In this document: piece by piece, positions 30,971-64,000 of the stretch | Layout of the letters: the number at the start of each line of letters is the position of its first letter | How positions within the stretch are numbered: the stretch's first letter is position 1 | NCBI GenBank assembly: GCA_964016885.1 | Contig: OZ024753.1 | Span: 1,984,001-2,048,000, forward strand | Reading direction: 5' to 3' | DNA from: Eledone cirrhosa | Lineage: Eukaryota | DNA: 64,000 bases | Notes under the pieces: generated by a model | Databases searched by the model: none | Seen by the model: only the letters and a program-made list of their open reading frames with translations | What the model was told of the DNA's origin: nothing | Position numbers and translations under genes: made by a program

Positions 30971-31119
30971 AAAAAATTATTAGAGGTTTTCCAGTGCTCC
31001 TCGCGATACAGTTATCTTTTGCTCTGGCAGCGGTTCGTTTGTCCACCCCTTTCGCTTGCCTTTTGGTGTATGTGGGCCTGCTGGTGTGTGCGCGCGTATT
31101 ATTTGTTTGTAATATTATG

Positions 31120-31292
31120 GCAGTATCGGTAGAGGGTCGCACGCCATGCTTTGCAGCATAGAGTTACGGACCTTACGGTCTGAGTTCAAATCTCGCCGAG
31201 GTTAACTCTGCCTTTCATCCTTACGGGGTCGATAAAATAAAGTACCAGTAATACACTAGGATAATTGCTGGCATTGTGCCAAACGTAGAAAC
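31120..31292 (+). mobile_element. tRNA-derived SINE with target-site duplication
   Basis: aatattatg at 31111-31119 and 31293-31301; the inverted paralogous site near 29655-29670 is empty. Confidence 0.85.
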
Positions 31293-37744: not shown

Positions 37745-38160
37745 CCACCATCATCATAACTGTTTAACGTCCATTATTCCACACTAGCCTGGGTTAGACG
37801 AGTTGCTCTGTTGTGAACAAGCCAGATCAGCTGTGTCTTGCTTGGTTTCTACGGCTCGATGTCCTTCCTAATGCCAACCACATTTACAGTGTGGACGGTG
37901 CGTTTTATTATGGGACCAAAACGCCCACTTTACAGTGGACGGTGCTTTTTATCATGACACCTACTTGACCACTTTACAGTGTGAGTTGGGTGCTTTTTAT
38001 CATGACACCTACATGACCATTTTACAGTGAGTTGGGTGCTTTTTATCATGACACCTACATGACCACTTTACAGTGAGTTGGGTGCTTTTTATCATGACAC
38101 CTACATGACCACTTTACAGTGTGAGTTGGGTGCTTTTTATCATGACACCTACATGACCAC
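37745..38160 (-). repeat. RTE-tail repeat with an internal ~44-bp minisatellite expansion
   Basis: ttacagtgagttgggtgctttttatcatgacacctacatgaccac repeated ~5 times after a ccttcctaatgccaacc tail motif. Confidence 0.75.
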
Positions 38161-40184: not shown

Positions 40185-40359
40185 ATGGCGGTGTTAAGTG
40201 TTTACATTATTAACAAGGCTGGTGGACTTATCTATCAATATGATCAGAATTCAAACAGACCTGAAGTTGAGAAAACATTTGGTTTCCCTCTAGATATTGT
40301 TCTGAAAGTTCATGATGATAAAGTAGTAGTTTCTTTTGGTGAACGAGACGGCGTTAAAG
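40185..40359 (+). CDS. TRAPPC4: Trafficking protein particle complex subunit 4, exon 1
   Basis: [20 protein letters not shown]...[11 protein letters not shown]...[11 protein letters not shown]|gtttgt. Confidence 0.95.
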
Positions 40360-42326: not shown

Positions 42327-42501
42327 TTGGACATACTGTACTTAGTATTAATGGCATTCCTGCTGAAGGTCGATATCTCAAAGATGGCCGAGACATTCTG
42401 GAGCTATTAGCTTGTGAAGAAAATTACCCAATCAACATAAAGTTTGGTCGCCCAAAATTGACAACAAATGAAAGGATTATGCTTGCTAGTATGTTCCACT
42501 C
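42327..42501 (+). CDS. TRAPPC4: TRAPPC4 exon 2
   Basis: [12 protein letters not shown]...[27 protein letters not shown]|gtaagt. Confidence 0.95.
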
Positions 42502-43038
42502 GTAAGTTCACAAATTTATTTCCTCTCTATGTAAATCTAAATTGTGTTTTGCACCGTCTATGAACTTTCAGTATTTCTAGATGTAAGACAATTTTCTATG
42601 ATGGATAAAAACTTATGTGAAAAATTCCGATATATGGGAGTATGCATGAGTGAATCATATAATTATTGTAATAATGTAGTGCTATCTTACTTAAATATTG
42701 TCTTTATGGAAAAGGAGCATTAAATGAGGTAGCTGTGGATACACAGGTGAAACTCCAGAGTAGCAGGACTCAATAAAGAAAATGTTGACACAGGATCAAA
42801 ATTTGTATTATGCAGTAATACAGAAGACTCGCACATGGTCTTAATTAATATGATGGACCTGACTCCAGTATCAGTCTGATCATGACATTAGACTAAAATT
42901 GAACAGATGAACTTTTATGCTTGGTTATAATACTCTTATTATGTGCAGTGAATTGGTAGAGTCATTAGAACTTGTACAGTGAGTAGGTTGAGCAACTACT
43001 TTCGAATTCCATTGTTTGATTGATTTATTTCTTTGTAG

Positions 43039-43142
43039 GCTGTATACCATCAGCTGCCAACTTTCCCCTGAACCTCGTTCTTCTGGAATTGACCTGATAG
43101 AAACAGATACATTTAAACTGCATTGCTTTCAAAGTATGACAG
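43039..43142 (+). CDS. TRAPPC4: TRAPPC4 exon 3
   Basis: [34 protein letters not shown]|gtaagg. Confidence 0.95.
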
Positions 43143-43768
43143 GTAAGGCAACAGCTAAGAGATTTTTGAAGTTTGAACTTGGTAAAGCACTGGAATGTTT
43201 GTAAGCACGATGATGCAAGCCATCCCAGCTTGTTTGATTATGGCAATATTTGTAAACAAGATGCAGATCTTCTGGTCTGCTTGAACATGGTAATACAAGT
43301 ACACAAAATGCAGACTCCTTAATTGATCTGAGAGGTCAATAGCTCAGCTTGTAATTGTAATGACCTACCCAACCATTGTTAGCATGGAAAATGAATGATG
43401 ATGATGACATATCTGGAAAGATACTCCCTTCATATCAACTGTAGATCTTAGTTTTCATGTTTCTCTCAAAGACTGTTTTAATTGATATAACTTTTGGTCA
43501 ACTTCAGATGCTCTAATCCTTCATATACGTTTCAACTCAGAATGGATGTGCATGTTTGGTGTTAGAAAGGGCATCCAGCTGTAGAAACCAAGCCAAAATA
43601 CAGATCTGTATGAGCAGAATGCGATCTCCTGGCCCAACTTGTCTCTTAATGAACATTAAAGATTCCATGCTTTGCCATACTTGCACATTAACATCTCGCT
43701 TCATTTCTCTCCAACCACAAACATTAGAAAGATGATAATTACATTTATTAAATATATTCTTATTTCAG

Positions 43769-43895
43769 GCCTCAAGTTTTTAGCACTAACAGATTTGCGA
43801 CAAATTGGAGTGGAACAGCTACTTAGGAAAATGTATGAAGTCTACTCGGACTATGCATTAAAAAATCCATTTTATTCACTGGATATGCCAATCAG
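43769..43895 (+). CDS. TRAPPC4: TRAPPC4 exon 4
   Basis: GLKFLALTD...[26 protein letters not shown]|gtgagc. Confidence 0.95.
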
Positions 43896-44150
43896 GTGAG
43901 CTAGATAATTATTTTAAGCTTATATGTTTATATTAATATAAAGAATGGCGTGCTTATGAATAGATGCTACAAAATAGGGTGAAGACACTTAAAAGACAAA
44001 GAAGTTGCTCTTGGTTGCTATAGAATAGCATCTTCACACATAAGCACACCATTCTTTATATTAAATTCACCCACTCAGCACTTAATAAAAGTCTGAGAGA
44101 TTAACTACGTATACACAATTTATTTTGTGTTTTTATCTTTTTCATTTTAG

Positions 44151-44220
44151 GTGTACTCTTTTTGAAACCTATCTTCAGGCTTGTATCGAGCAGTCAGAAC
44201 GTGTAGGCATGGGAATGTAA
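44151..44220 (+). CDS. TRAPPC4: TRAPPC4 exon 5 (last)
   Basis: ttttag|CTLFETYLQACIEQSERVGMGM*; joined CDS 651 nt (216 aa). Confidence 0.92.
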
Positions 44221-45272
44221 GAAGACAACACAACATCTATTTCACAAAGAACTAGAATTTGTCAAAAGTAATTTTGTATGTTTGACATTAAAAATGTCTC
44301 ACCTGCTGGATTGGCACTCGAAATAATAATATGTAAGACAATTTAACAGAAAATAGTGTTTTATTAGAAATATATAGTGATACCAAAGATGTTTGGAGTT
44401 GTTTAAAAACTCTAAGGTAACACCCTAATTTCTTTGTCATCACTATATATTACAGTTAATGTCCCATTTGCATTGTGGTAGCTTTCTAATAAAACACTAT
44501 GTTCTATACTTGACACAATGTTTCAAGCAAACTACAACACCCTCTTATATTATCCAGAATACTTATGCTCTTGAACATTCCCAGAGGAGAAAATGTAAAT
44601 AACAAATAAAATATATTGTATTTAATATAGCCAAGATGGTTTGAAGCATGCCTCATTTGTTTTTATTATTTTGCTTTGGCAGTATTGTTAGAACATGCTT
44701 AATTTGTTTTTATTATTTTGCTTTGGCAGTATTGTTAGAACATGCTTTGTGTCATATAGCTATATTCCTTTACTCCTTATGGGATCGCTTTAATTGACTC
44801 CGTGCATAAATCAGAAACCATTATTTGATTTCCCTTACTTTAAAATATGTTTGTAATCAACAGAATACACTTTAATATCTTTTTATTGCTTATTTCAACT
44901 ATAATAAAACACCCAGTAAAGTAGTAATGCTGGAGTCACAATTGATAGTGTTGGTGCTATGACAAAAGCATGCTAGTCATGATAAAATGTTTCCAGTACA
45001 TCATTATTTGGATAAACAAGGAATCAATTGACAAGATCCCACACCTCATTCGCTTACTGAGTGGGGTGGAACTCATCAAATCAGACCAAGAAAACAATGT
45101 TCCATTCCATCTGCCAGTTGCAACATGAAATAAAGTGTCCTGCTCAAGGAATCAACCTCGTGATTGTGAATCCAATTCTCTAACCACTAAGCCACACACC
45201 TTGGATATATAACAGTAATAATGTTTCATAGTGAAGAATAAATACACAATCAAAGGTCTGTTTTAAATTACT

Positions 45273-45391
45273 TTAATTCATTAATTCGTTTAAATAAAAC
45301 TTTCTAGTTATTTCAGAAACATTTATATCATAAATACTAGGTATGGAATCTTCTGAAACTTTTTCTTCACTTTTACTTAAGGCATATTTGT
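45273..45391 (-). CDS. PIGP: GPI-GlcNAc transferase subunit P, last coding exon
   Basis: ttttgcag|DKYALSKSEEKVSEDSIPSIYDINVSEITRKFYLNELMN* matches the PIGP C-terminus (D.YA...IP...DI.ISEV...F); not in the ORF track. Confidence 0.88.
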
Positions 45392-46989
45392 CTGCAAAAG
45401 AAAAATTCAAATAAGGTTTCTTTTAATATCATTTGCTGTAACAAAATATATATAGATTGTTTATACGAGGGTCAGCTGAAAAGTTCATAAATTGACCACA
45501 TGAGGTTTATTTTCCAACCTAGTACCATGAAAGAAACAATGCAGTTAAAATTAATACGTGCAAGATTTCACAGCTCTAGCATCACACCTTCATAGTCAGC
45601 CTGTAAACTTCCAGCTGACCTTTATAAGTTGAATATAATAAATATATAGAATTGACCTCTGTTGGTTTCTATAATGCATGTTCCAGTTCTTTCTTAGTTT
45701 TCTCTGTACTTTAACAGACACCATATCTAATGAGTTAGTTTTATAACAAAAGCTTAAATGATCTTTCAGATATCACAAATTGTTACATCTCTTTGCAAAC
45801 ATATATGGTGGACAGAATAGAGTAGGATGGTGAGGGAGAGCCACTCAGCTCACGAGGCTGAGTGTTCCCATTGTTCAATCAGCCTGCTAGTATAATTAAC
45901 TGAGCAGTCCACAGACACAAGTACCCTTAATATATTATTCTGAAGGTGATTCAATGTAACAGACAAGGCTGGCTCTTTGAATTACAGGTACAGTCCTTCC
46001 AAACAGTTTCTGCCTACCAAATTTCACTCCCAAAGCATGGGTCAACTCAAGACTATGTTAAATGACATTTGTCCAAGCTGCTACACAGTCTAATCAGTGG
46101 ACCTAATGGTTGTGAAATGAACCCCTTAACTATATTCAGCCATGATAAAAAAACAAATACACAATAATATATTGATGTACAGGTGGAAAATTACCAGGAG
46201 CTTTATTAGGGTTCCATGCATTCTGAGTCCAAATCCCACAGGTCAATTTTGTCTTTCATTCTTCCAGGATTGGTATACAAAATGCCAGTTTAAGGTGGTG
46301 GATTGGTAATATTTATTCCAGCATTTTGCATTTCTAGTTAAAGTCCAGCCAAGTTTATTTGGGTGGTAGATTTAACTCTGCCACCTGGCCCCTGAGTGTC
46401 ATTAACAGAGCCTATGCTGTTGCAATTTTTGTGTTAAGTCTTCCACCCACAAAAAGGGTTAAGAGGACTCTAATGTTAGTGATATATCGACAGTTGATCA
46501 ATGTTTCCATTGGTCTTTCCAATTGCTAATACTATCTACCGGTCGTAAATCCAAGTAGAAGGAGCAACGTGAAATAAGGTGTCTTGATCAAGGACATAAC
46601 GCATCGCCCAGCCTGGGAATCAGACTCTCTAACCACTCAGCCATGTGCCTTCACAAAGTGATCTATAAGATAAACAATTCCAGTATACTCTGTGGTTGAG
46701 GATAGAAAACTTACCAAAGAAAAAAAACAAGAGTTGGGAGAGCTCATCAACTGTGTTAAAGACATGACAACCTCTCAAGTGCTGATGCACCTGGTAGAGT
46801 AAGTATGGGCTCAATGAACCCTTGTTACCAGGGAAACAGATGTTAGCCTCCAAAGATGTGATGATATTATCAATACTGAATAGTGTATAATATCTGACAC
46901 ATCATTCATGTCACTAATGGCAACATCAATGATTGTTGCTACAATATTAATCATTTGTGATGATGCTGAGGTATAGCAGTCTTACTTAC

Positions 46990-47108
46990 CAGTAATAGTA
47001 TTGAGAGAATCAAAGCTTTGAGTGTTAAGAAAAACACTGGCAAAATATGCCAAATATCCCAGGAGGACAGCCACTATCAAATAGGCAGGAATAGCAACAG
47101 CCCAATAT
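46990..47108 (-). CDS. PIGP: PIGP penultimate coding exon (upstream exons not in window)
   Basis: tttttgtacag|YWAVAIPAYLIVAVLLGYLAYFASVFLNTQSFDSLNTIT|gtaagt matches PIGP YWAVALP...PLDSIHTITD. Confidence 0.9.
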
Positions 47109-47378
47109 CTGTACAAAAAAAAAACATAACAAAAATTTAAAAGAATATTGTATAATAATAACTTAAGATTTTGTTTCTTCAATCCAAAAGCAATGCCAAT
47201 TGAATCTTCTTGTTCTATTGATATTGCTGCTGATGTTGATAGCAGTAAATTGTACCAGTCCATAAAACAAAACAATGTGTGTGTGTGACGTTAGGAAGGG
47301 TAGCCATGGATACCCGGCCCAAATCAGTTCTGTGTAAGCGAAACATGGTCCTTCGACCTGGATCTCTTATAAGAAGAT

Positions 47379-50300
47379 AACCAAATATAAACACTCTCTC
47401 ACCAACCAAATATAAACACGCTCACCTCTCCTGGAATGAAATTGCGGGTGTGCAAAGTCAGATTAATTTTACAGTCCAGGGGGAAGTAATTGTGTAAACA
47501 AACAGAAACAGAAAGTCCGTACTTGGGCGCTCTACCGGGTCAAAAAATCTCGAACAAAATTAATTACTTAATAACACACGACTATGAAACTTCAACATAT
47601 TCGCCATAAAACATTCACAACTTTATAATAAAACATTGATAAATAAAAAATAACGAAGTAAAGGTAAGACTTCGTGAAATTCAGTTAATGCTCTTCGTGT
47701 TGTTTTGGCAGACTATGTTTGTGTATATATATATGTAAATATACCTGTATACTTGTACATATTTATGTATGCATATACCTATATATAAATTATTGTCTTA
47801 TTTACAAAAAATGTTTATGTTTAATGTTTCATATTGAGTCGTATGGTTTTCTTCCATTTAATCACGACATAACTCTCAATACATGTGTCTCTCTCTGTCT
47901 TTCTTTCCCCTCTCTTACTCTCTCCCATTGTCCCTTCTTTCCTCTCTCTGCCTTACCTTTTATTCACTGAACATACCCCTCTCTCTATCAGTCTGCTTCT
48001 CTCTTCACATGTTACTCCCCTCCTTCCACTACACTATCTCCTTTCTCTCTCTCTTCTCACCAACCAAATATAAACACGCTCACTCCTGGAATGAAATTGC
48101 GGGTGTGCAAAATCAGATCAATTTTACAGTCCAGGGGCAAGTAATTGTGTAAAAAATCTCGAACAAAATTATTTACTTAATAAAATACGACTATGAAACT
48201 TCAACATAATCGCCATAAAAGATTCATAACTTTATAATAAAAAATCGATGAATAAAAAATAACGAAGTAAAGATACGATTGAACACTAAACTTCGTGAAA
48301 TGCCGTAAAAACTATTCGTGAAGTCTTGACAGACGATGTGTGTCTATATATATATACCTGTAAGCATGTATAAATGATTGACTTATTTACAAAAAATATT
48401 TATCTAATATCGTGTTTAATATTTCATATTGTATCGTCTGGTTTTCTTCCATTTAATCACGACATAACTCTCAATACACTTCCCTTCATTTACATGTGTC
48501 TCTCTCTGTCTTTCTTTCCTCTCGCACACAACCTCTCCTTCTCTCTCTCATTGTCTCTTCTTTCCTCTCTCTGGCTTTTATTCATTGAACATACCCCTCT
48601 CTCTATCAGTCTGCTTCTCTCTCTTCTTCTCTGCCTTTCTCTCTTCACCTGTTACTCCCCCCTCCTTCCACTACGCTATCTCCTTTCTCTCTCTCTTCTC
48701 ACCAACCAAATATAAACACGCTCACCTCTCCTGGAATGAAATTGCGGGTGTGCAAAATCAGATCAATTTTACAGTCCAGGGGGAAGTAATTGTGTAAACA
48801 AACAGTAAGACAGGAAGTCCCTACTTGGGCGCTCTACCGGGTAAAAAATCTCGAACAAAATTAATTACTTAATAAAACACGACTATGAAACTTCAACATA
48901 TTCGCCATAAAACATTCACAACTTTATAATAAAACATTGATAAATAAAAAATAACGAAGTAAAGGTAAGACTTCGTGAAATTCCGTTAATGCTCTTCGTG
49001 TTGTCTTGGGAGACTATGTTTGTGTATTATATATGTAAATATACCTGTACACTTGTACATATTTATGTATGCATATACCTATATATAAATTATTGTCTTA
49101 TTTACAAAACTGTTTGTGTTTAATGTTTCATATTGAGTCGTATGGTTCTCTTCCATTTAATCACGACATAACTCTCAATACATCTCCCTCATTTACATGT
49201 GTCTCTGTCTTTCTTTCCCCTCTCTCTATCAGTCTGTTTCTCCGCCGCTCTCTCTTCACATGTTACCCCCTCCTTTCTCTCTCTCTCTTCTCACCTCTCC
49301 TGGAATGAAATTGCGGGTGTACAACTATGAAACTTCAACATAATCACCATAAAACATTCACAACTTTATAATAAAAAAAATAATAAATAAAAATGTAAAC
49401 ATGTATATATTTATGTATGCATATATAAATTATTCTCTTATTTACAAAACTATTTAACTAATATTGTGTCGTCTGGTTTCCTTCCATTTAATTACGACGT
49501 AACTCTGAACACACCTCCCCTTCATTTACATACGGTCTTACTCTCTGTCTCTCTCTCTCCTTACATCTTACCCTCTCTTGTTCTCTCTATTTCTCACCAA
49601 CCAAATATAAACACGGTCACCTCTCACTTCTCTCTCCTAGAATAAATTTGCGGGTGTGCAAAATCAGATCAATTTTACGGTGCAGGGGGAAGTAATTATG
49701 TAAAAAATCTCGAACAAAATTAATTACTTGATAAAATACGACTATGAAACTTCAACATAATCGCCATAAAACATACACAAATTTATAATAAAAAATTAAT
49801 AAATAAAAAATAACGAAGTAAAGGTAAGATTGAACCCTAAACTTCGTGAAATTCCGTTAAAGCTATTAGTGTAGTCTTGGCAGACGATGTGTGTGTGTGT
49901 ATATATATAAATATACCTGTAAACATGTATATATTTATGTATGCATATATAAATTATTCTCTTATTTACAAAACTATTTAACTAATATCCTGTCGTCTGG
50001 TTTCCTTCCATTTAATTACGACATAACTCTGAACACACCTCCCCTTCATTTACATTCTCTCTCTCTCCCCTCTCACGCAGCCTTTACTCTGTTTTTTCTC
50101 TCATTGTCCCTTCTTCGTTCCCTCTCTCTCCCTGTCCTTACATCTGACCCTCTCTTGTTCTCTCTCTTTCTCACCAACCAAATATAAACACGCTCACCTC
50201 TCAGTTCTCTCTCCTAGAATAAATTTGCGGGTGTGCAAAATCAGATTAATTTTACAGTCCAGGGGGACGTAATTGTGTAAACAAACAGAGTGACAGGAAG

Positions 50301-53300
50301 TCCCTACTTGGGCGCTCTACCAGATAGAAAAATCTCGAACAGAATAAGTTAATTAATAAAACACGACTATGAAACATTCACAACTTTATAATAAAACATT
50401 GATAAATAAAAAATAACGAAGTAAAGATACGATTGAACACAAAACTTCGTGAAATTCCGTAAAAACTTCGTGAAGTCTTGATAGACGATGTGTGTCTCAT
50501 CATCATCATCATCATCACCGTTTTACGTCCGTTCTTCCACGCTAGCATGGGTTAGACGGGTTGTCCTGTTGTGGGCAGTGTCTGGTCGGCTGACCATGCC
50601 TTGCTCATACAGGAACTGATCTGGCTTGATTTCTACAGCTGGATGCCCTTCCTAACACCAACCTCATTTACAGTGAGTGCTGGGTGCTTTTTCGTGGCGC
50701 CTACACGTCCACTTTACAGTGTGGGCTGGGTGCTTTTTTGCCGTGGCACCTCCACGACCACCTTGCGGTGGGGGGGGGGGGGGCATATTGTTTATATGCT
50801 TCAGCATGTACCCATGGGAGGTCGGGTACCCTGTATTACTGCGTGACGCCAGAAGTCACGGTCGTGTGTCTATATATATATATACCTGTAAGCATGTATA
50901 TATTTATGTATGGATGTATAAATGATTGTCTTATTTACAAAAATGTTTATCTAATATCGTGTTTAATATTTCATATTGTGTCGTGTAGTTTTCTTCCATT
51001 TAATTACGACATAACTCTCAATACACCTCCCTTCATTTACATGTCTCCTCTGTCTTTCTTTCCTCTCTTTCTCTCTCTGGCTTTTATTCACTGAACATAC
51101 CCCTCTCTTCTTCTCTGCCTTTCTCTCTTCACATGTTACCCCCTCCTTCCACTACGCTATCTCCTTTCTCTCTCTCTTCTCACCAACCAAATATAAACAG
51201 GCTCACCTCTCCTGGAATGAAATTGCGGGTGTGCAAAATCAGATCAATTTTACGGTCCAGGGGCAAGTAATTGTGTAAAAAATCTCGAACAAAATTATTT
51301 ACTTAATAAAATACGACTATGAAACTTCAACATAATCGCCATAAAAGATTCATAATTTTATAATAAAAAAATCGATAAATAAAAAATAACGAAGTAAAGA
51401 TACGATTGAACACTAAACTTCGTGAAATTCCGTAAAAACTATTCATGAAGTCTTGACAGAAGATGTGTGTCTATATATATATACCTGTAAGCATGTATAT
51501 ATTTATGTATGCATGTATAAATGATTGTCTTATTTACAAAAATGTTTAATATTTAATATTGTGTCGTCTGGTTTTCTTCCATTTAATCACGACATAACTC
51601 TCAATACATCTCCCTTCATTTACATGTCTCTCTCTGTCTTTCTTTCCTCTCTCACACAACCTCTCCTTCTCTCTCTCATTGTCCCTTCTTTCCTCTCTCT
51701 ATTCTACTCTGCCTTTCTCTCTTCACATGTTACCCCCTCCTTCCACTACGCTATCCTCTTTCTCTCTCTCTTCTCACCAACCAAATATAAACACGCTCAC
51801 CTCTCCTGGAATGAAATTGCGTGTGTGCAAAATCAGATTAATTTTACAGTCCAGGGGGAAGTAATTGTGTAAACAAACAGAAAGACAGGAAGTCCCTACT
51901 TGGGCGCTGTACCGGGTAAAAAATCTCGAACAGAATAAGATAATTAATAAAACACGACTATGAAACATCAACATATTCGCCATAAAACATTCACAACTTT
52001 ATAATAAAACATTGATAAATAAAAAATAACGAAGTAAAGGTAAGACTTCGTGAAATTCCGTTAATGCTCTTCGTGTTGTCTTGGCAGACTATGTTTGTGT
52101 ATATATATATGTAAATATACCTGTACACTTGTACATATTTATGTATGCATATACCTATATATAAATTATTGTCTTATTTACAAAAATGTTTGTGTTTAAT
52201 GTTTCATATTGAGTCGTATGGTTTTCTTCCATTTAATCACGACATAACTCTCAATACATCTCCCTCATTTACATGTGTCTTTTTCTCTGTCTTTCTTTCC
52301 CCTCTCTCTATCAGTCTGTTTCTCCGCCTCTCTCTCTTCACATGTTACCCCTCCTTTCTCTCTCTCTCTTCTCACCAACCAAATATAAACACGCTCACCT
52401 CTCCTGGAATGAAATTGCGGGTGTGCAGAATCAGATTAATTTTACAGTCCAGGGGGAAGTAATTGTGTAAAAAATCTCGAACAAAATTAATTACTTAATA
52501 AAATACAACTATGAAACTTCAACATAATCACCATAAAACATTCACAACTTTATAATAAAAAAAATAATAAATAAAAAATAACAATGTAAAGGTAAGATCG
52601 AACCCTAAACTTCGTGAAATTCCGTTAAAGCTATTCGTGTAGTCTTGACAGACGATGTGTGTGTGTGTATATATATAAATATAACTGTAAACATATATTT
52701 ATGTATGCATATATAAATTATTCTCTTATTTACAAAACTATTTAACTAATATCCTGTCGTCTGGTTTCCTTCCATTTAATTACGACGTAACTCTGAACAC
52801 ACCTCCCCTTCATTTACATACGGTCTTACTCTCTGTCTCTCTCTTTACCCTCTCACACAGCCTTTACTCTGTTCGTTCCCTCTCTCTGCTTTACCTCCTA
52901 TTCACTCAACATCCCTCTCTCTCTCGCTCTCCTTACATCTTACCCCCTTCTTCCACTACACTATCTTCTTGCGCTCTCTATTTCTCACCAACCAATTATA
53001 AACACGGCCACCTCTCAGTTCTCTCTCCCAGAATAAATTTGCGTGTGTGCAAAATCAGATCAATTTTACAGTCCAGGGGGAAGTAAATGTGTAAAAAAAT
53101 CTCGAACAAAATTGATTACTTAATAAAATACGACTATGAAACTTGAACATAATCGCCATGAAACATTCACAAATTTATAATAAAAAATAACGATGTAAAG
53201 GTAAGATTGAACCCTAAACTTCGTGAAATTCCGTTAAAGCTATTCGTGTAGTCTTGGCAGACGATGTGTGTGTGTATATATATAAATATACCTGTAAACA

Positions 53301-56300
53301 TGTATATATTTATGTATGTATATATAAATTATTCTCTTATTTACAAAACTATTTAACTAATATCCTGTCGTCTGGTTTCCTTCCATTTAATTACGACATA
53401 ACTCTGAACACACCTCCCCTTCATTTACATTCTCTCTCTCTCCCCTCTCACGCAGCCTTTACTCTGTTTTTTCTCTCATTGTCCCTTCTTCGTTCCCTCT
53501 CTCTGCTTTACCTCCTATTCACTCAACATCCCTCTCTCTCCCTGTCCTTACATCTTACCCTCTCTTGTTCTCTCTCTTTCTCACCAACCAAATATAAACA
53601 CGGTCACCTCTCAGTTCTCTCTCCTAGAATAAATTTGCGGGTGTGCAAAATCAGATTAATTTTACAGTCCAGGGGGACGTAATTGTGTAAACAAACAGAG
53701 TGACAGGAAGTCCCTACTTGGGCGCTCTACCAGATAGAAAAATCTCGAACAGAATAAGTTAATTAATAAAACACGACTATGAAACATTCACAACTTTATA
53801 ATAAAACATTGATAAATAAAAAATAACGAAGTAAAGATACGATTGAACACAAAACTTCGTGAAATTCCGTAAAAACTTCGTGAAGTCTTGATAGACGATG
53901 TGTGTCTATATATATATATACCTGTAAGCATGTATATATTTATGTATGGATGTATAAATGATTGTCTTATTTACAAAAATGTTTATCTAATATCGTGTTT
54001 AATATTTCATATTGTGTCGTGTAGTTTTCTTCCATTTAATTACGACATAACTCTCAATACACCTCCCTTCATTTACATGTCTCCTCTGTCTTTCTTTCCT
54101 CTCTTTCTCTCTTTGGCTTTTATTCACTGAACATACCCCTCTCTTCTTCTCTGCCTTTCTCTCTTCACATGTTACCCCCTCCTTCCACTACGCTATCTCC
54201 TTTCTCTCTCTCTTCTCACCAACCAAATATAAACAGGCTCACCTCTCCTGGAATGAAATTGCGGGTGTGCAAAATCAGATCAATTTTACGGTCCAGGGGC
54301 AAGTAATTGTGTAAAAAATCTCGAACAAAATTATTTACTTAATAAAATACGACTATGAAACTTCAACATAATCGCCATAAAAGATTCATAACTTTATAAT
54401 AAAAAAATCGATAAATAAAAAATAACGAAATAAAGATACGATTGAACACTAACTTCGTGAAATTCCGTAAAAACTATTCGTGAAGTCTTGACAGAAGATG
54501 TGTGTCTATATATATATACCTGTAAGCATGTATATATTTATGTATGCATGTATAAATGATTGTCTTATTTACAAAAATGTTTAATATTTAATATTGTGTC
54601 GTCTAGTTTTCTTCCATTTAATCACGACATAACTCTCAATACATCTCCCTTCATTTACATGTCTCTCTCTGTCTTTCTTTCCTCTCTCACACAACCTCTC
54701 CTTCTCTCTCTCATTGTCCCTTCTTTCCTCTCTCTATCAGTCTGCTTCTCTTTCTTCTACTCTGCCTTTCTCTCTTCACATGTTACCCCCTCCTTCCACT
54801 ACGCTATCCTCTTTCTCTCTCTCTTCTCACCAACCAAATATAAACACGCTCACCTCTCCTGGAATGAAATTGCGTGTGTGCAAAATCAGATTAATTTTAC
54901 AGTCCAGGGGGAAGTAATTGTGTAAACAAACAGAAAGACAGGAAGTCCCTACTTGGGCGCTGTACCGGGTAAAAAATCTCGAACAGAATAAGTTAATTAA
55001 TAAAACACGACTATGAAACATCAACATATTCGCCATAAAACATTCACAACTTTATAATAAAACATTGATAAATAAAAAATAACGAAGTAAAGGTAAGACT
55101 TCGTGAAATTCCGTTAATGCTCTTCGTGTTGTCTTGGCAGACTATGTTTGTGTATATATATATGTAAATATACCTGTACACTTGTACATATTTATGTATG
55201 CATATACCTATATATAAATTATTGTCTTATTTACAAAAATGTTTGTGTTTAATGTTTCATATTGAGTCGTATGGTTTTCTTCCATTTAATCACGACATAA
55301 CTCTCAATACATCTCCCTCATTTACATGTGTCTTTTTCTCTGTCTTTCTTTCCCCTCTCTCTATCAGTCTGTTTCTCCGCCTCTCTCTCTTCACATGTTA
55401 CCCCTCCTTTCTCTCTCTCTCTTCTCACCAACCAAATATAAACACGCTCACCTCTCCTGGAATGAAATTGCGGGTGTGCAGAATCAGATTAATTTTACAG
55501 TCCAGGGGGAAGTAATTGTGTAAAAAATCTCGAACAAAATTAATTACTTAATAAAATACAACTATGAAACTTCAACATAATCACCATAAAACATTCACAA
55601 CTTTATAATAAAAAAAATAATAAATAAAAAATAACAATGTAAAGGTAAGATCGAACCCTAAACTTCGTGAAATTCCGTTAAAGCTATTCGTGTAGTCTTG
55701 ACAGACGATGTGTGTGTGTGTATATATATAAATATAACTGTAAACATATATTTATGTATGCATATATAAATTATTCTCTTATTTACAAAACTATTTAACT
55801 AATATCCTGTCGTCTGGTTTCCTTCCATTTAATTACGACGTAACTCTGAACACACCTCCCCTTCATTTACATACGGTCTTACTCTCTGTCTCTCTCTTTA
55901 CCCTCTCACACAGCCTTTACTCTGTTCGTTCCCTCTCTCTGCTTTACCTCCTATTCACTCAACATCCCTCTCTCTCTCGCTCTCCTTACATCTTACCCCC
56001 TTCTTCCACTACACTATCTTCTTGCGCTCTCTATTTCTCACCAACCAATTATAAACACGGCCACCTCTCAGTTCTCTCTCCCAGAATAAATTTGCGTGTG
56101 TGCAAAATCAGATCAATTTTACAGTCCAGGGGGAAGTAAATGTGTAAAAAAATCTCGAACAAAATTGATTACTTAATAAAATACGACTATGAAACTTGAA
56201 CATAATCGCCATGAAACATTCACAAATTTATAATAAAAAATAACGATGTAAAGGTAAGATTGAACCCTAAACTTCGTGAAATTCCGTTAAAGCTATTCGT

Positions 56301-59300
56301 GTAGTCTTGGCAGACGATGTGTGTGTGTATATATATAAATATACCTGTAAACATGTATATATTTATGTATGTATATATAAATTATTCTCTTATTTACAAA
56401 ACTATTTAACTAATATCCTGTCGTCTGGTTTCCTTCCATTTAATTACGACATAACTCTGAACACACCTCCCCTTCATTTACATTCTCTCTCTCTCCCCTC
56501 TCACGCAGCCTTTACTCTGTTTTTTCTCTCATTGTCCCTTCTTCGTTCCCTCTCTCTGCTTTACCTCCTATTCACTCAACATCCCTCTCTCTCCCTGTCC
56601 TTACATCTTACCCTCTCTTGTTCTCTCTCTTTCTCACCAACCAAATATAAACACGCTCACCTCTCAGTTCTCTCTCCTAGAATAAATTTGCGGGTGTGCA
56701 AAATCAGATTAATTTTACAGTCCAGGGGGACGTAATTGTGTAAACAAACAGAGTGACAGGAAGTCCCTACTTGGGCGCTCTACCAGATAGAAAAATCTCG
56801 AACAGAATAAGTTAATTAATAAAACACGACTATGAAACATTCACAACTTTATAATAAAACATTGATAAATAAAAAATAACGAAGTAAAGATACGATTGAA
56901 CACAAAACTTCGTGAAATTCCGTAAAAACTTCGTGAAGTCTTGATAGACGATGTGTGTCTATATATATATATACCTGTAAGCATGTATATATTTATGTAT
57001 GGATGTATAAATGATTGTCTTATTTACAAAAATGTTTATCTAATATCGTGTTTAATATTTCATATTGTGTCGTGTAGTTTTCTTCCATTTAATTACGACA
57101 TAACTCTCAATACACCTCCCTTCATTTACATGTCTCCTCTGTCTTTCTTTCCTCTCTTTCTCTCTTTGGCTTTTATTCACTGAACATACCCCTCTCTTCT
57201 TCTCTGCCTTTCTCTCTTCACATGTTACCCCCTCCTTCCACTACGCTATCTCCTTTCTCTCTCTCTTCTCACCAACCAAATATAAACAGGCTCACCTCTC
57301 CTGGAATGAAATTGCGGGTGTGCAAAATCAGATCAATTTTACGGTCCAGGGGCAAGTAATTGTGTAAAAAATCTCGAACAAAATTATTTACTTAATAAAA
57401 TACGACTATGAAACTTCAACATAATCGCCATAAAAGATTCATAACTTTATAATAAAAAAATCGATAAATAAAAAATAACGAAATAAAGATACGATTGAAC
57501 ACTAACTTCGTGAAATTCCGTAAAAACTATTCGTGAAGTCTTGACAGAAGATGTGTGTCTATATATATATACCTGTAAGCATGTATATATTTATGTATGC
57601 ATGTATAAATGATTGTCTTATTTACAAAAATGTTTAATATTTAATATTGTGTCGTCTAGTTTTCTTCCATTTAATCACGACATAACTCTCAATACATCTC
57701 CCTTCATTTACATGTCTCTCTCTGTCTTTCTTTCCTCTCTCACACAACCTCTCCTTCTCTCTCTCATTGTCCCTTCTTTCCTCTCTCTATCAGTCTGCTT
57801 CTCTTTCTTCTACTCTGCCTTTCTCTCTTCACATGTTACCCCCTCCTTCCACTACGCTATCCTCTTTCTCTCTCTCTTCTCACCAACCAAATATAAACAC
57901 GCTCACCTCTCCTGGAATGAAATTGCGTGTGTGCAAAATCAGATTAATTTTACAGTCCAGGGGGAAGTAATTGTGTAAACAAACAGAAAGACAGGAAGTC
58001 CCTACTTGGGCGCTGTACCGGGTAAAAAATCTCGAACAGAATAAGTTAATTAATAAAACACGACTATGAAACATCAACATATTCGCCATAAAACATTCAC
58101 AACTTTATAATAAAACATTGATAAATAAAAAATAACGAAGTAAAGGTAAGACTTCGTGAAATTCCGTTAATGCTCTTCGTGTTGTCTTGGCAGACTATGT
58201 TTGTGTATATATATATGTAAATATACCTGTACACTTGTACATATTTATGTATGCATATACCTATATATAAATTATTGTCTTATTTACAAAAATGTTTGTG
58301 TTTAATGTTTCATATTGAGTCGTATGGTTTTCTTCCATTTAATCACGACATAACTCTCAATACATCTCCCTCATTTACATGTGTCTTTTTCTCTGTCTTT
58401 CTTTCCCCTCTCTCTATCAGTCTGTTTCTCCGCCTCTCTCTCTTCACATGTTACCCCTCCTTTCTCTCTCTCTCTTCTCACCAACCAAATATAAACACGC
58501 TCACCTCTCCTGGAATGAAATTGCGGGTGTGCAGAATCAGATTAATTTTACAGTCCAGGGGGAAGTAATTGTGTAAAAAATCTCGAACAAAATTAATTAC
58601 TTAATAAAATACAACTATGAAACTTCAACATAATCACCATAAAACATTCACAACTTTATAATAAAAAAAATAATAAATAAAAAATAACAATGTAAAGGTA
58701 AGATCGAACCCTAAACTTCGTGAAATTCCGTTAAAGCTATTCGTGTAGTCTTGACAGACGATGTGTGTGTGTGTATATATATAAATATAACTGTAAACAT
58801 ATATTTATGTATGCATATATAAATTATTCTCTTATTTACAAAACTATTTAACTAATATCCTGTCGTCTGGTTTCCTTCCATTTAATTACGACGTAACTCT
58901 GAACACACCTCCCCTTCATTTACATACGGTCTTACTCTCTGTCTCTCTCTTTACCCTCTCACACAGCCTTTACTCTGTTCGTTCCCTCTCTCTGCTTTAC
59001 CTCCTATTCACTCAACATCCCTCTCTCTCTCGCTCTCCTTACATCTTACCCCCTTCTTCCACTACACTATCTTCTTGCGCTCTCTATTTCTCACCAACCA
59101 ATTATAAACACGGCCACCTCTCAGTTCTCTCTCCCAGAATAAATTTGCGTGTGTGCAAAATCAGATCAATTTTACAGTCCAGGGGGAAGTAAATGTGTAA
59201 AAAAATCTCGAACAAAATTGATTACTTAATAAAATACGACTATGAAACTTGAACATAATCGCCATGAAACATTCACAAATTTATAATAAAAAATAACGAT

Positions 59301-62300
59301 GTAAAGGTAAGATTGAACCCTAAACTTCGTGAAATTCCGTTAAAGCTATTCGTGTAGTCTTGGCAGACGATGTGTGTGTGTATATATATAAATATACCTG
59401 TAAACATGTATATATTTATGTATGTATATATAAATTATTCTCTTATTTACAAAACTATTTAACTAATATCCTGTCGTCTGGTTTCCTTCCATTTAATTAC
59501 GACATAACTCTGAACACACCTCCCCTTCATTTACATTCTCTCTCTCTCCCCTCTCACGCAGCCTTTACTCTGTTTTTTCTCTCATTGTCCCTTCTTCGTT
59601 CCCTCTCTCTGCTTTACCTCCTATTCACTCAACATCCCTCTCTCTCCCTGTCCTTACATCTTACCCTCTCTTGTTCTCTCTCTTTCTCACCAACCAAATA
59701 TAAACACGCTCACCTCTCAGTTCTCTCTCCTAGAATAAATTTGCGGGTGTGCAAAATCAGATTAATTTTACAGTCCAGGGGGACGTAATTGTGTAAACAA
59801 ACAGAGTGACAGGAAGTCCCTACTTGGGCGCTCTACCAGATAGAAAAATCTCGAACAGAATAAGTTAATTAATAAAACACGACTATGAAACATTCACAAC
59901 TTTATAATAAAACATTGATAAATAAAAAATAACGAAGTAAAGATACGATTGAACACAAAACTTCGTGAAATTCCGTAAAAACTTCGTGAAGTCTTGATAG
60001 ACGATGTGTGTCTATATATATATATACCTGTAAGCATGTATATATTTATGTATGGATGTATAAATGATTGTCTTATTTACAAAAATGTTTATCTAATATC
60101 GTGTTTAATATTTCATATTGTGTCGTGTAGTTTTCTTCCATTTAATTACGACATAACTCTCAATACACCTCCCTTCATTTACATGTCTCCTCTGTCTTTC
60201 TTTCCTCTCTTTCTCTCTTTGGCTTTTATTCACTGAACATACCCCTCTCTTCTTCTCTGCCTTTCTCTCTTCACATGTTACCCCCTCCTTCCACTACGCT
60301 ATCTCCTTTCTCTCTCTCTTCTCACCAACCAAATATAAACAGGCTCACCTCTCCTGGAATGAAATTGCGGGTGTGCAAAATCAGATCAATTTTACGGTCC
60401 AGGGGCAAGTAATTGTGTAAAAAATCTCGAACAAAATTATTTACTTAATAAAATACGACTATGAAACTTCAACATAATCGCCATAAAAGATTCATAACTT
60501 TATAATAAAAAAATCGATAAATAAAAAATAACGAAATAAAGATACGATTGAACACTAACTTCGTGAAATTCCGTAAAAACTATTCGTGAAGTCTTGACAG
60601 AAGATGTGTGTCTATATATATATACCTGTAAGCATGTATATATTTATGTATGCATGTATAAATGATTGTCTTATTTACAAAAATGTTTAATATTTAATAT
60701 TGTGTCGTCTAGTTTTCTTCCATTTAATCACGACATAACTCTCAATACATCTCCCTTCATTTACATGTCTCTCTCTGTCTTTCTTTCCTCTCTCACACAA
60801 CCTCTCCTTCTCTCTCTCATTGTCCCTTCTTTCCTCTCTCTATCAGTCTGCTTCTCTTTCTTCTACTCTGCCTTTCTCTCTTCACATGTTACCCCCTCCT
60901 TCCACTACGCTATCCTCTTTCTCTCTCTCTTCTCACCAACCAAATATAAACACGCTCACCTCTCCTGGAATGAAATTGCGTGTGTGCAAAATCAGATTAA
61001 TTTTACAGTCCAGGGGGAAGTAATTGTGTAAACAAACAGAAAGACAGGAAGTCCCTACTTGGGCGCTGTACCGGGTAAAAAATCTCGAACAGAATAAGTT
61101 AATTAATAAAACACGACTATGAAACATCAACATATTCGCCATAAAACATTCACAACTTTATAATAAAACATTGATAAATAAAAAATAACGAAGTAAAGGT
61201 AAGACTTCGTGAAATTCCGTTAATGCTCTTCGTGTTGTCTTGGCAGACTATGTTTGTGTATATATATATGTAAATATACCTGTACACTTGTACATATTTA
61301 TGTATGCATATACCTATATATAAATTATTGTCTTATTTACAAAAATGTTTGTGTTTAATGTTTCATATTGAGTCGTATGGTTTTCTTCCATTTAATCACG
61401 ACATAACTCTCAATACATCTCCCTCATTTACATGTGTCTTTTTCTCTGTCTTTCTTTCCCCTCTCTCTATCAGTCTGTTTCTCTGCCTCTCTCTCTTCAC
61501 ATGTTACCCCTCCTTTCTCTCTCTCTCTTCTCACCAACCAAATATAAACACGCTCACCTCTCCTGGAATGAAATTGCGGGTGTGCAGAATCAGATTAATT
61601 TTACAGTCCAGGGGGAAGTAATTGTGTAAAAAATCTCGAACAAAATTAATTACTTAATAAAATACAACTATGAAATTTCAACATAATCACCATAAAACAT
61701 TCACAACTTTATAATAAAAAAAATAATAAATAAAAAATAACGATGTAAAGGTAAGATTGAACCCTAAACTTCGTGAAATTCCGTTAAAGCTATTCGTGTA
61801 GTCTTGACAGACGATGTGTGTGTGTGTATATATATAAATATAACTGTAAACATATATTTATGTATGCATATATAAATTATTCTCTTATTTACAAAACTAT
61901 TTAACTAATATCCTGTCGTCTGGTTTCCTTCCATTTAATTACGACGTAACTCTGAACACACCTCCCCTTCATTTACATACGGTCTTACTCTCTGTCTCTC
62001 TCTTTACCCTCTCACACAGCCTTTACTCTGTTCGTTCCCTCTCTCTGCTTTACCTCCTATTCACTCAACATCCCTCTCTCTCTCGCTCTCCTTACATCTT
62101 ACCCCCTTCTTCCACTACACTATCTTCTTGCGCTCTCTATTTCTCACCAACCAAATATAAACACGGCCACCTCTCAGTTCTCTCTCCCAGAATAAATTTG
62201 CGTGTGTGCAAAATCAGATCAATTTTACAGTCCAGGGGGAAGTAAATGTGTAAAAAAATCTCGAACAAAATTGATTACTTAATAAAATACGACTATGAAA

Positions 62301-64000
62301 CTTGAACATAATCGCCATGAAACATTCACAAATTTATAATAAAAAATTAATAAATAAAAAATAACGATGTAAAGGTAAGATTGAACCCTAAACTTCGTGA
62401 AATTCCGTTAAAGCTATTCGTGTAGTCTTGGCAGACGATGTGTGTGTGTATATATATAAATATACCTGTAAACATGTATATATTTATGTATGCATATATA
62501 AATTATTCTCTTATTTACAAAACTATTTAACTAATTTCGTGTCGTCTGGTTTCCTTCCATTTAATTACGACATAACTCTGAACACACCTCCCCTTCATTT
62601 ACATTCTCTCTCTCTCCCCTCTCACGCAGCCTTTACTCTGTTTTTTCTCTCATTGTCCCTTCTTCGTTCCCTCTCTCTGCTTTACCTCCTATTCACTCAA
62701 CATCCCTCTCTCTATATCTGTCTGTCCGTCTCTCTCTCTCCTTACATCTTACCCTCTCTTGTTCTCACCAACCAAATATAAACACGGTCACCTCTCAGTT
62801 CTCTCTCCTAGAATAAATTTGCGGGTGTGCAAAATCAGATTAATTTTACAGTCCAGGGGGAAGTAATTGTGTAAACAAACAGAAAGACAGGAAGTCCCTA
62901 CTTGGGCGCTCTACCGGGTAAAAAATCTCGAACAAAATTAATTACTTAATAAAACACGACTATGAAACTTCAACATATTCGCCATAAAACATTCACAACT
63001 TTATAATAAAACATTGATAAATAAAAAATAGCGAAGTAAAGGTAAGACTTCGTGAAATTCCGTTAATGCTATTCGTGATGTCTTGGCAGAGTATGTTTGT
63101 GTATATATATATGTAAATATACCTATATATAAATTATTGTCTTATTTAAAAAATGTTTGTGTTTAATGTTTCATATTGAGTCGTATGGTTTTCTTCCATT
63201 TAATCACGACATAACACTCAATACACTTCCATCCATTTACATGTGTCTCTCTCGGCCTTACCTTTTATTCACTGAACATACCCCTCTCTCTATCATTCTG
63301 TTTCTCCGCCTCTCTCTTCTCACTAACCAAATATAAACACGCTCACCTCTCCTGGAATGAAATTGCGGGTGTGCAAAATCAGATCAATTTTACAGTCCAG
63401 GGGGAAGTAATTGTGTAAAAAAACTCGAACAAAATTATTTACTTGATAAAATACGACTATGAAACTTCAACATAATCGCCATAAAACATTCACAACTTTA
63501 TAATAAAAAAATCGATAAATAAAAAATAACGATGTAAAGGTAAGATTGAACCCTAAACTTCGTCAAATTCCGTTAAAGCTATTCGTGTAGTCTTGGCAGA
63601 CGATGTGTGTGTGTGTGTATATATATAAATATACCTGTAAACATGTATATATTTATGTATGCATGTATATAAATTATTCTCTTATTTACAAAACTATTTA
63701 ACTAATATTTTGTCGTCTAGTTTCCTTCCATTTAATTACGACATAACTCTGAACACAGCTCCCCTTCATTTACATACGGTCTTTCTGTCTCTCTCTCTTT
63801 CCCCCCTCACACAGCCCTTACTCTGGTTTTTCTCTCTCATTGTCCCTTCCTCGGTCCCTCTCTCTGCTTTACCTCCTATTCACTCAACATCCCTCTCTCT
63901 CGTTCTCCTTACATCTTACCCCCTTCTTCCACTACACTAACTTCTTACGCTCTCTATTTCTCACCAACCAAATATAAACACGCTCACCTCTCCTGGAATG
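47379..64000. repeat. Tandem satellite, ~600-bp monomers (~27 copies) with a 3053-bp five-monomer higher-order repeat core; continues past window end
   Basis: Anchor ctcctggaatgaaattgcg / ctcctagaataaatttgcg recurs every ~600 bp; near-identical ORFs at 52145/55198/58251/61304, 53254/56307/59360, 53888/56941/59994 and 54560/57613/60666 are spaced exactly 3053 bp. Confidence 0.97.
50498..50863 (-). mobile_element. 5'-truncated RTE-tail retroelement inserted in one satellite monomer
   Basis: (GAT)n tail; 8-bp TSD gtgtgtct at 50490-50497 and 50864-50871; 5' end reads DRDFWRHAV (RTE C-terminus-like). Confidence 0.85.

Follow-up and report, generated by a model that had tools for sequence, protein, structure and literature searches.

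A tandem array with a 3,053-bp five-monomer higher-order repeat, likely in the upstream intron of an octopod PIGP gene

A tandem array of ~610-bp non-coding monomers, including a 3,053-bp higher-order repeat (HOR) of five monomers, was identified next to PIGP in a 64,000-nt stretch of octopod DNA (referred to here as the window). An intact PIGP gene is the likely host, with the array in its upstream intron. Unequal crossing-over, occurring repeatedly, would likely have expanded the array, which is taken to have no role at the centromere; as a whole, we consider this account probable. Under such an account, the array is most likely an intronic macrosatellite with an HOR, a kind of locus that is already known.

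Organization of the array

In the assembled sequence, 27 monomers of ~610 bp and a partial 28th extend from 47,379 to the end of the window (64,000). They occupy 16.6 kb of the window, all head to tail and in one orientation. The anchor TTGCGGGTGTGCA was detected in the 27 monomers (47,442-63,363), with the partial 28th from 63,960. Being composed of head-to-tail non-coding units in an array of >10 kb, the locus in this respect fits the macrosatellites/VNTRs. Its main features are as follows.

47,379-47,398, plus strand: left edge of the array, where part of the monomer head is duplicated over a short length (direct repeat of 20 nt, spacing 25)
47,398-48,055, plus strand: outermost monomer (m01), A-like, closest to monomer m26 of the right flank (95%)
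48,056-51,772, plus strand: older copy of the core 5-mer, consisting of E', A', a deleted B' and C' (1.7-3.2% diverged), then D (0.16%) and E'' (0.6%)
50,498-50,863, minus strand: SINE-like insertion of 366 bp with a (CAT)n tail, in only one D monomer, with an 8-bp target-site duplication (GTGTGTCT) at 50,490-50,497 and 50,864-50,871
51,702-62,347, plus strand: homogeneous HOR core, defined by ungapped identity at offset 3,053 (3.49 units, 10.6 kb, as assembled)
54,826-57,878, plus strand: one HOR unit, comprising A 54,826-55,423 (598 bp), B 55,424-56,036 (613 bp), C 56,037-56,632 (596 bp), D 56,633-57,267 (635 bp) and E 57,268-57,878 (611 bp)
62,348-64,000, plus strand: right flank, comprising the rest of C', a chimeric m26 (C/D head, A body), a B/C-like m27, and the partial 28th monomer running off the window

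The commonest offset in the self-comparison was 3,053 (6,985 12-mer pairs), followed by 6,106 and 9,159, and the lengths of the five classes sum to the same value (598 + 613 + 596 + 635 + 611 = 3,053 bp). In a tree of monomers, the core monomers fell into five position-specific classes. Self-comparison and monomer phylogeny, both proposed as checks by an earlier sequence-only reading of this DNA, thus agree with its description of five variants repeated about 3.5 times as a near-identical 3053-bp block. The differences that it had listed among monomers were all found: a 47- to 48-bp insert (given as ~45 bp) in classes A and D, heads with CCTGGAATGAAATTGC in A, B, and E versus CCTAG/CCCAGAATAAATTTGC in D and C, and CT tracts that differ from class to class. 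Its limits for the repeat (~51.8-62.7 kb) required adjustment to 51,702-62,347. A 15-bp insertion near 62,338 is followed by a class-C-like monomer (97% to class C) that reaches ~62,760, which accounts for the earlier 62.7-kb limit. No conserved ORF was found in the array monomers; a 17-codon ORF in some monomer heads was rejected, being missing from classes C and D.

Successive HOR copies are 99.7 to 100% alike, versus 84 to 95% between monomer classes. Units 1 and 2 differ by 2 substitutions (51,940 and 53,603), units 2 and 3 at none of 3,053 sites (microsatellites included), and unit 3 and the partial unit 4 at 5 of 1,487 sites. The 10.6-kb core is without indels in any TG/TA, CT, or poly-A tract. 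Around the core, divergence is layered. Aligned with the core in the order E-A-B-C-D-E, the left flank showed 60 substitutions in 3,328 columns (3.2, 2.2, 1.7, 3.2, 0.16, and 0.62% per segment), the outer four monomers being more diverged than those beside the core. The right flank extends for ~2.7 monomers before the window ends, and the far end of the array lies beyond 64,000. The earlier description of divergent, deleted, and transposon-interrupted monomers on both sides of the core therefore stands in part: divergence occurs on both sides, large deletions and the mobile element occur on the left only, and the left flank is an ordered, older 5-mer. The SINE-like element, which has relatives (69-94% identical) elsewhere in the window, is a very recent retroposon insertion.

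The near identity of the core copies raises the alternative that the monomers are real and the homogeneous core is partly an assembly product, i.e., a 3,053-bp unit that was looped or made identical by polishing, or a longer run that was collapsed. We consider this unlikely. The identity of units 2 and 3 over 3,053 bp, which an assembler or polisher could also yield, and the lack of any tract indel across 10.6 kb are as this alternative would have it. However, variants in units 1 and 4 recur in flank monomers. Three of the five differences in the terminal copy (61,742, 61,758, and 62,155) match the state of flank monomers, while the three core copies share the derived state, and the G at 53,603 is found again in two flank monomers; these recurrences indicate a pattern of descent rather than random error. 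Moreover, the D copy at 50.2 kb differs from the core D at only 1 of 635 columns, yet it carries its own insertion and target-site duplication. An older full 5-mer also exists, and a pure duplicate is possible for at most one unit (2 versus 3), although a longer run may have been collapsed. In a search of sequencing runs with 42,001-52,000, seven runs were listed, none of them RNA: three from one sample contained 0.64 to 0.67 of the words, one contained 0.15, and three RAD-seq runs were included by species label. The matching runs belong to one study and may derive from the sample that was assembled; they were given no weight here.

The monomers themselves are recombinant mosaics. Among 13 distinct monomers, 280 of 861 pairs of informative sites were incompatible, and neighboring sites were less incompatible than shuffled sites (0.133 versus 0.325, P = 0.0002, PHI-like test). 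Mosaic monomers and layered divergence are both traces of unequal exchange between units. The divergence within the core (0-0.34%) resembles the size of the standing polymorphism in two-spot octopuses. Judged only from this unit divergence, the copy number of the array likely varies between individuals.

The PIGP locus and CpG content

One subunit of the first GPI-anchor enzyme is PIGP, whose gene is usually single-copy. The following gene features adjoin the array.

40,185-44,217, plus strand: TRAPPC4, matched over five exon stretches and arranged tail to tail relative to PIGP
45,273-45,391, minus strand: last coding exon of PIGP (D-KYALSKSEEK...ELMN-stop), with a canonical acceptor and, in 41 aligned residues, 63% identity to the PIGP of O. 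vulgaris/sinensis (P0097)
46,990-47,108, minus strand: middle coding exon of PIGP (YWAVAIPAY...LNTIT; 119 nt), with AG/GT sites, a match to Pfam PF08510 (PIG-P) positions 43-81 (E value, 3.4e-10), and 74% identity to P0097
47,109-64,000, minus strand: putative upstream intron of PIGP (>16.9 kb), codons 1-54 being encoded by one or more exons outside the window

The acceptor AG ends at 47,109 and the array begins at 47,379, in keeping with the spacing of ~270 bp reported previously. Also as reported, N-terminal exons are absent: the first 54 residues of PIGP had no credible match anywhere in the 64-kb window. The two exons in the window are intact, encode the PIG-P domain, and occupy a syntenic position, as judged by accession order. 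With synteny assessed by accession order only, PIGP and TRAPPC4 are adjacent in O. vulgaris (CAI9730879/80 and 81), Argonauta (GAB1605978 and 77), and O. bimaculoides (XP_014785452 and 57). The host is itself an octopod, as one TRAPPC4 exon is 95% identical to that of Argonauta (best of 59 matches). Because two intact 3' exons stand beside TRAPPC4 as in three other octopods, PIGP here is probably a working orthologue whose first 54 codons would lie beyond the window. The 74% exon identity to O. vulgaris makes relaxed selection on this PIGP formally possible. Counting against the intronic model is intron length, since the median intron of O. vulgaris is 2,467 bp (PMC10700109) and the putative PIGP intron would be at least 7 times as long.

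The sequence-only reading had left two options, namely, that PIGP is transcribed through more than 16 kb of satellite or that this copy is decapitated. The former is likely the better of the two. A decapitated PIGP, through rearrangement or a mis-join, with the array as intergenic DNA beside a gene remnant, has in our estimation hardly any likelihood, even though no part of the window encodes the first 54 codons and the array is without the CpG decay of the adjoining gene bodies. Both exons are open with canonical splice sites, the adjacency to TRAPPC4 is conserved, and the PIGP exon shares residues with a distant cephalopod-like homologue (P0090) at positions where Octopus and Argonauta differ.

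The CpG observed/expected (o/e) ratio is 0.88 in the array, versus 0.16 to 0.30 in the bodies of PIGP, TRAPPC4, and BUB3; it is 0.96 at 28-32 kb, and the 3' intron of PIGP is strongly depleted (0.16). The retention of CpGs in the array suggests that it likely escaped germ-line methylation. Among 13 monomers (without the heavily deleted m04, the insertion-bearing m06, which is of the same class as D, and repeated core copies), CpG transitions were found at 4 of 24 sites, versus 22 of 96 at other C/G sites (P = 0.59). In dispersed SINE copies, the corresponding counts were 57 of 173 and 99 of 860 (P = 6e-11), in a control that was polarized on one young copy and that counted overlapping alignments. 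CpG conservation, suggested by 0 of 24 transitions in a first subset of 8 monomers (P = 0.04), was abandoned when the fuller set of 13 gave 4 of 24, and our claim is restricted to the absence of hypermutation.

In octopus, methylation is found on gene bodies, and the transcription start site or first third of many genes is spared (PMC9476566). Satellites of O. bimaculoides are relatively more methylated than other repeats (PMC9476566), which speaks against an unmethylated satellite being typical. An apparently unmethylated 16-kb segment inside a gene with a CpG-depleted 3' intron would be unlike a long-resident intron and fits equally a position outside the transcription unit or a recent arrival.

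Proposed growth of the array and alternative origins

In the history that we propose, the array began with the head-to-tail duplication of a 600-bp AT-rich, CpG-retaining piece containing both a TG/TA and a CT tract. That its CpGs are kept suggests a source in the unmethylated, promoter-proximal part of the gene. The copies would then have diverged by 5 to 16% and exchanged segments, giving three lineages (A, B/C, and D/E) and chimeras such as D, which would combine a C head, an A middle, and an E tail. Subsequently, a five-monomer block would have become the unit of out-of-register exchange, with at least one early round of copying, represented by the E'-C' flank, and a very recent one that added 2 to 3 further copies. 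PIGP is predicted to be transcribed through the array, which would be spliced out whole and is most likely neutral.

Alternatively, the array could be the internal tandem repeat of a dispersed non-autonomous transposon resembling the Helentron/HINE elements of oysters; the monomer would then belong to a genome-wide family, with an insertion in the intron. Molluscan satellite-like arrays often lie inside HINEs (PMC7492417), and Helitrons are numerous in O. vulgaris (PMC13282606). The CpG content of the array would also be accounted for, since octopus transposable elements are rich in CpG and for the most part unmethylated (PMC9476566). However, oyster HINE monomers are mostly 140 to 180 bp and form short arrays (PMC7492417), versus at least 28 units of 610 bp here; the left edge shows neither a subterminal repeat nor a clear hairpin (inverted arms reach 73-83% or 8 nt at best); and outside the array, the HOR unit matches only one 35-bp stretch (at two query places) in the other 47 kb of the window. 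We therefore regard a HINE origin as quite improbable. No monomer copies were found in that 47 kb, and a search elsewhere recovered an 18-base motif in 17 metagenome loci, the longest match to the HOR unit being 18 to 21 bp, as expected by chance.

The monomers could also be functional cassettes, serving as alternative promoters, small-RNA genes, or micro-exon/recursive splice points that aid the processing of a long intron. The CpG content is promoter-like, each monomer head has a CT tract and TATAAA, the head on the PIGP strand reads YAG-GAGAG-GTGAGC or a variant of it in each monomer, and the TG/TA tract folds into hairpins (z scores down to -5.2). Yet the splice motif is unconserved: its spacer is 2, 5, or 16 nt long, 4 of 27 monomers have lost the acceptor, and 1 of 27 has no donor. 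It is also at chance level, since 7% of shuffled monomers contain such a motif and its frequency elsewhere is 0.11 per 610 bp and strand. Hairpin folding is weak, at -12 to -22 kcal/mol per 80 nt, and class dependent. We give this idea almost no weight. Rfam models at gathering score had no match in the array (the sole match in the window was a weak tRNA at 7,797-7,869), and ARAGORN predicted 0 tRNAs. A relaxed Rfam scan of 47,200-55,000 gave 26 matches, all to TG/TA-repeat miRNA models and at 19 to 41 bits versus cutoffs of 81 to 100, and these were rejected. Structured RNA was likewise set aside: in 306 folded window-strands of one unit, z was below -2 in 29 and below -3 in 11, and the top ones, mostly at or near the TG/TA tract, represent low-complexity self-pairing. 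A promoter scan with a bacterial model, not apt for an animal, gave chance-level results.

Relation to centromeric and non-centromeric arrays

The sequence-only reading had called the array alpha-satellite-like. A homogeneous core with diverged outer layers is indeed present, as is the HOR of position-specific monomers whose copies are far more alike than the monomers; identity with alpha satellite did not hold up. Self-identity at offsets 170-172 was 0.30 to 0.33, i.e., background, with monomers of 596 to 635 bp and thus no 171-bp unit. No other sub-period (best identity, 0.35) or clear 10-bp AA/TT phasing was found in the monomers, and no CENP-B box with one or fewer mismatches was found in the array (2.09 expected by chance; best, 7 of 9 positions). 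The primate host of alpha satellite is ruled out by the TRAPPC4 match to Argonauta. Primate HORs such as the pentameric SF3 (PMC8122249) resemble the array in having five position-specific monomers as a near-identical block with diverged outer layers. They differ in monomer length (171 bp versus 610 bp), monomer similarity (about 70% versus 84-95%), and extent (megabases versus 3.5 copies in 10.6 kb), and the octopod array has no CENP-B box and has gene-dense surroundings.

A centromeric or pericentromeric satellite domain carrying CENP-A, with the array at its edge, appears very unlikely. The layered HOR architecture, the AT-rich composition (35% GC), and the continuation of the array past the window would suit such a domain; CENP-A-bound satellites can be hypomethylated (as in maize, PMC8122249), and no cephalopod centromeric satellite was found in the literature for sequence comparison. 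Against it, the core is only 10.6 kb, with divergence resuming at 62.3 kb; a sub-period, clear phasing, and a CENP-B box are lacking; four housekeeping genes lie within the adjacent 26 kb, versus an O. vulgaris mean of 8.36 genes per Mb; and HORs are documented in human non-centromeric arrays. The earlier proposal of a centromeric domain is thus not upheld. We place similarly little credence in its boldest form: a far larger satellite domain, unmethylated and recruiting CENP-A within an essential gene's transcribed intron, of which the array would form the inner border.

As a probable intronic macrosatellite with an HOR, the array can also be compared with several other known systems. The CpG-rich macrosatellites D4Z4 and DXZ4 share with the octopod array a ~3-kb unit, retained CpGs, and an expected variability in copy number. 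Their units are GC-rich and not made of five related monomers, and D4Z4 carries a gene, whereas the octopod array has 35% GC and no conserved ORF. For human non-centromeric VNTR/megasatellite arrays, HORs, locations within introns, and unequal crossing-over are documented by Warburton et al. (2008, PMC2588610). These arrays resemble ours in being locus bound and >10 kb, with kilobase HORs in a monomer array and some intronic cases, in having a transposable element inserted in one monomer, and in the presumed driver, unequal crossing-over. They differ in that ours is an octopod array of unrelated sequence with a 610-bp monomer, and its insertion is present in a single copy, having failed to spread with the HOR. 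The oyster Cg_HINE (Helentron) arrays (PMC7492417) are likewise molluscan tandem arrays outside obvious heterochromatin that contain microsatellites. They are short and dispersed, with subTIR, IR, and palindrome flanks, none of which was convincing at the left edge of the octopod array, the one readable edge.

Our literature search recovered no account of a satellite HOR or satellitome from any cephalopod. The sequence is thus probably undescribed, though its kind is known; the search also found nothing on non-centromeric intronic HORs in invertebrates. HOR architecture alone is no sign of a centromere. If the monomer were present on every chromosome or bound by CENP-A, the importance of the array would be much greater; a CENP-A domain in this intron would open cephalopod centromeres to study by sequence for the first time and would be a natural case of an HOR centromere within a gene. 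As it stands, the array is a small record of HOR formation, in which 16 kb contain mosaic monomers, an older layer of the 5-mer, and a recent 3.5-fold expansion, and it is likely a length-polymorphic marker in this octopod.

Organization of the array and its core

Beyond 44 kb, 12-mer self-matches were dominated by an offset of 3,053, the length of the higher-order repeat (HOR) unit in the core of the array of ~610-bp monomers that runs from 47,379 to the end of the window. Base-by-base identity at this offset was ~0.3 up to 51.7 kb and 0.99 to 1.0 from 51,702, and it returned to background past the partner position at ~62,347. The homogeneous core measured 10,646 bp, or 3.49 units, in agreement with the near-identical block of five monomer variants in ~3.5 copies described in the sequence-only reading. 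Units 1 and 2 differed at two sites, units 2 and 3 at none, and unit 3 and the partial unit 4 at 5 of 1,487 sites. An anchor motif marked 27 monomers (47,442 to 63,363), and a partial 28th started at 63,960. Monomer lengths were obtained by cutting the HOR unit at the head motif.

Monomer classes of the HOR unit
A, 598 bp
B, 613 bp
C, 596 bp
D, 635 bp
E, 611 bp

A maximum-likelihood tree of all 27 monomers placed those of the core in five position-specific groups, as had been proposed, and the variant features previously named as diagnostic were found in the monomers. The related class pairs (B plus C and D plus E) were 94 to 95% alike, and the three monomer lineages were 84 to 91% alike between lineages. 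Tandem Repeats Finder overlooked the array because of its period limit of 500. No Rfam family or tRNA was detected in the array, no conserved open reading frame in the monomers, and no conserved hairpin other than at the TG/TA tract. A micro-exon-like motif in the monomers was rejected, since its frequency was at chance level.

The array had no 171-bp sub-period and no CENP-B box; CENP-B is a mammalian protein, and the missing box therefore counts against alpha-satellite membership, not against octopod centromere function. The suggested likeness to alpha satellite thus holds for the HOR layout, which is common to both, but not for the defining features of alpha satellite as outlined in PMC8122249. 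A centromere role for the array is very improbable: the core spans just 10.6 kb, the neighborhood is gene-dense, and no clear 10-bp phasing was seen.

Flanking layers and array history

The left flank from 48,040 to 51,820 followed the order E-A-B-C-D-E in an alignment of 3,328 columns that held 60 substitutions (3.2, 2.2, 1.7, 3.2, 0.16, and 0.62% by segment). The old layer consists of its outer four monomers; the two that adjoin the core are close to being core monomers themselves. The flanking B monomer has lost ~300 bp through several deletions. The flanking D copy, a single site away from core D, holds a 366-bp SINE-like insertion that ends in (CAT)n and is bounded by an intact 8-bp target-site duplication (50,490 to 50,871). 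The first 274 bases of the insertion have at least 20 relatives in the window among the matches listed (69 to 94% identical), and the last ~100 bases have none within the window. This insertion is very young and may be present in some individuals and absent from others.

Other repeats in the window include short minisatellites with units of 46 to 48 bp (37,966 to 38,170 and 41,122 to 41,294), the first of which is made of a segment internal to this SINE family. A weak Rfam tRNA match at 7,797 to 7,869 (30.9 bits against a cutoff of 29), which ARAGORN did not confirm, adjoins copies of that family and is probably a SINE head. Broken reading frames at 2,436 to 2,826, with no Pfam match at an E value of 0.01, presumably resemble the end of a Penelope-type GIY-YIG retroelement.

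The monomers are of mosaic make-up. Class D has its head nearest C, its 47-bp insert region nearest A, and the remainder nearest E; a right-flank monomer combines an A body with a C/D head. The four-gamete test was failed by 280 of 861 informative site pairs, and incompatibility between neighboring sites was below that in shuffled order (P = 0.0002). The terminal copy differs from the core at five sites, at three of which it matches the state in flank monomers, the private change being common to the three core copies. Such mosaics, layering, and shared variants are the expected marks of out-of-register exchange, which would have operated at the monomer scale first and at the five-monomer scale afterwards. 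The identity of units 2 and 3 would allow for one core unit being a duplicate made by the assembler, or for the collapse of a longer run. The five-monomer organization itself cannot be an artifact, because the older layer, the variants shared between copies, and the insertion-bearing D copy are present.

At a mutation rate of 2.4e-9 per generation, used in PMC13669787 and measured in another octopus, the core units split within ~1 to 7 x 10^5 generations; for the outer layer, the split dates to 3 to 7 x 10^6 generations ago. Both dates are approximate, since clocks of this kind are reset by conversion. The core diverges to about the extent of the nucleotide diversity reported for two-spot octopuses (0.07 to 0.26%; PMC13669787), and we therefore expect the array to be polymorphic in length.

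PIGP and its neighbors

Genes to the left of the array
21.3 kb, POLR2F (Pfam Rpb6)
33.5-37.3 kb, BUB3-like WD40 gene (Pfam, WD40 only)
40.2-44.2 kb, plus strand, TRAPPC4
47,108-46,990, minus strand, PIGP exon
45,391-45,273, minus strand, PIGP exon

These four genes, including the WD40 gene that we take to be BUB3, all lie inside 26 kb (21,312 to 47,108), which is very dense for an octopod. A 47-bp tandem duplication (2.3 copies; 44,639 to 44,747) occupies the 3' region shared between TRAPPC4 and PIGP. Among 59 matches to a TRAPPC4 exon, the top one was from Argonauta (95%), followed by a cuttlefish (88%); the PIGP exon was 74% identical to that of O. vulgaris/sinensis. These matches mark the host as an octopod, though probably neither O. 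vulgaris nor O. sinensis. PIGP and TRAPPC4 have neighboring accession numbers in O. vulgaris, O. bimaculoides, and Argonauta. We read this order as conserved adjacency in three other octopods, and on this reading the PIGP gene in the window is probably the orthologue.

PIGP has an essential role. A tBLASTn search, a profile search, and a 10-mer scan gave no credible match within the window for its first 54 residues, which upholds the earlier remark that the N-terminal part is missing there. The simplest reading is a PIGP intron of >16.9 kb that spans the array; the median intron of O. vulgaris is 2,467 bp (PMC10700109).

CpG content, origin, and comparison with known arrays

The CpG observed/expected ratio was 0.88 in the array and 0.29, 0.30, and 0.16 in the gene bodies of BUB3, TRAPPC4, and PIGP, respectively. 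Among 13 distinct monomers, transitions showed no excess at CpG (4/24 versus 22/96 at other C/G sites), whereas dispersed SINE copies showed a clear excess (57/173 versus 99/860). The array was thus likely unmethylated in the germ line all through its growth. In octopus, 5mC lies on gene bodies, sparing the transcription start site or the first third in many genes; levels are low on transposable elements and relatively higher on satellites (PMC9476566). We favor a reading in which the array would stem from the unmethylated 5' portion of PIGP. An array of transposable-element origin, or one outside the transcript, would predict the same CpG signal, which is the main weak point of this reading. 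Separately, the 4 kb between POLR2F and the BUB3-like gene (28,001 to 32,000) had a ratio of 0.96; a promoter region free of methylation, or a further young element, likely lies there.

The CpG-rich macrosatellites D4Z4 and DXZ4 served as a comparison. Noncentromeric human VNTR/megasatellite arrays, for which HORs, intronic locations, and unequal crossing-over are described (Warburton et al.; PMC2588610), work in a similar way, whereas oyster HINE arrays differ in monomer size and flanks (PMC7492417). HORs have also been published for beetles. For cephalopods, we found no satellite HOR or satellitome paper in a search whose coverage of subscription papers was thin, and repeat libraries in supplements may hold the monomer. 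In the passages covered, a paper on the Sepia genome names centromeres a single time, as a target for staining (PMC13218726), and a repeat annotation of O. vulgaris takes up neither satellites nor centromeres (PMC13282606). The array sequence is probably undescribed so far. The array is a real, young, and probably intronic macrosatellite with a five-monomer HOR in an octopod PIGP gene, and the mechanism behind it is quite likely an ordinary one.
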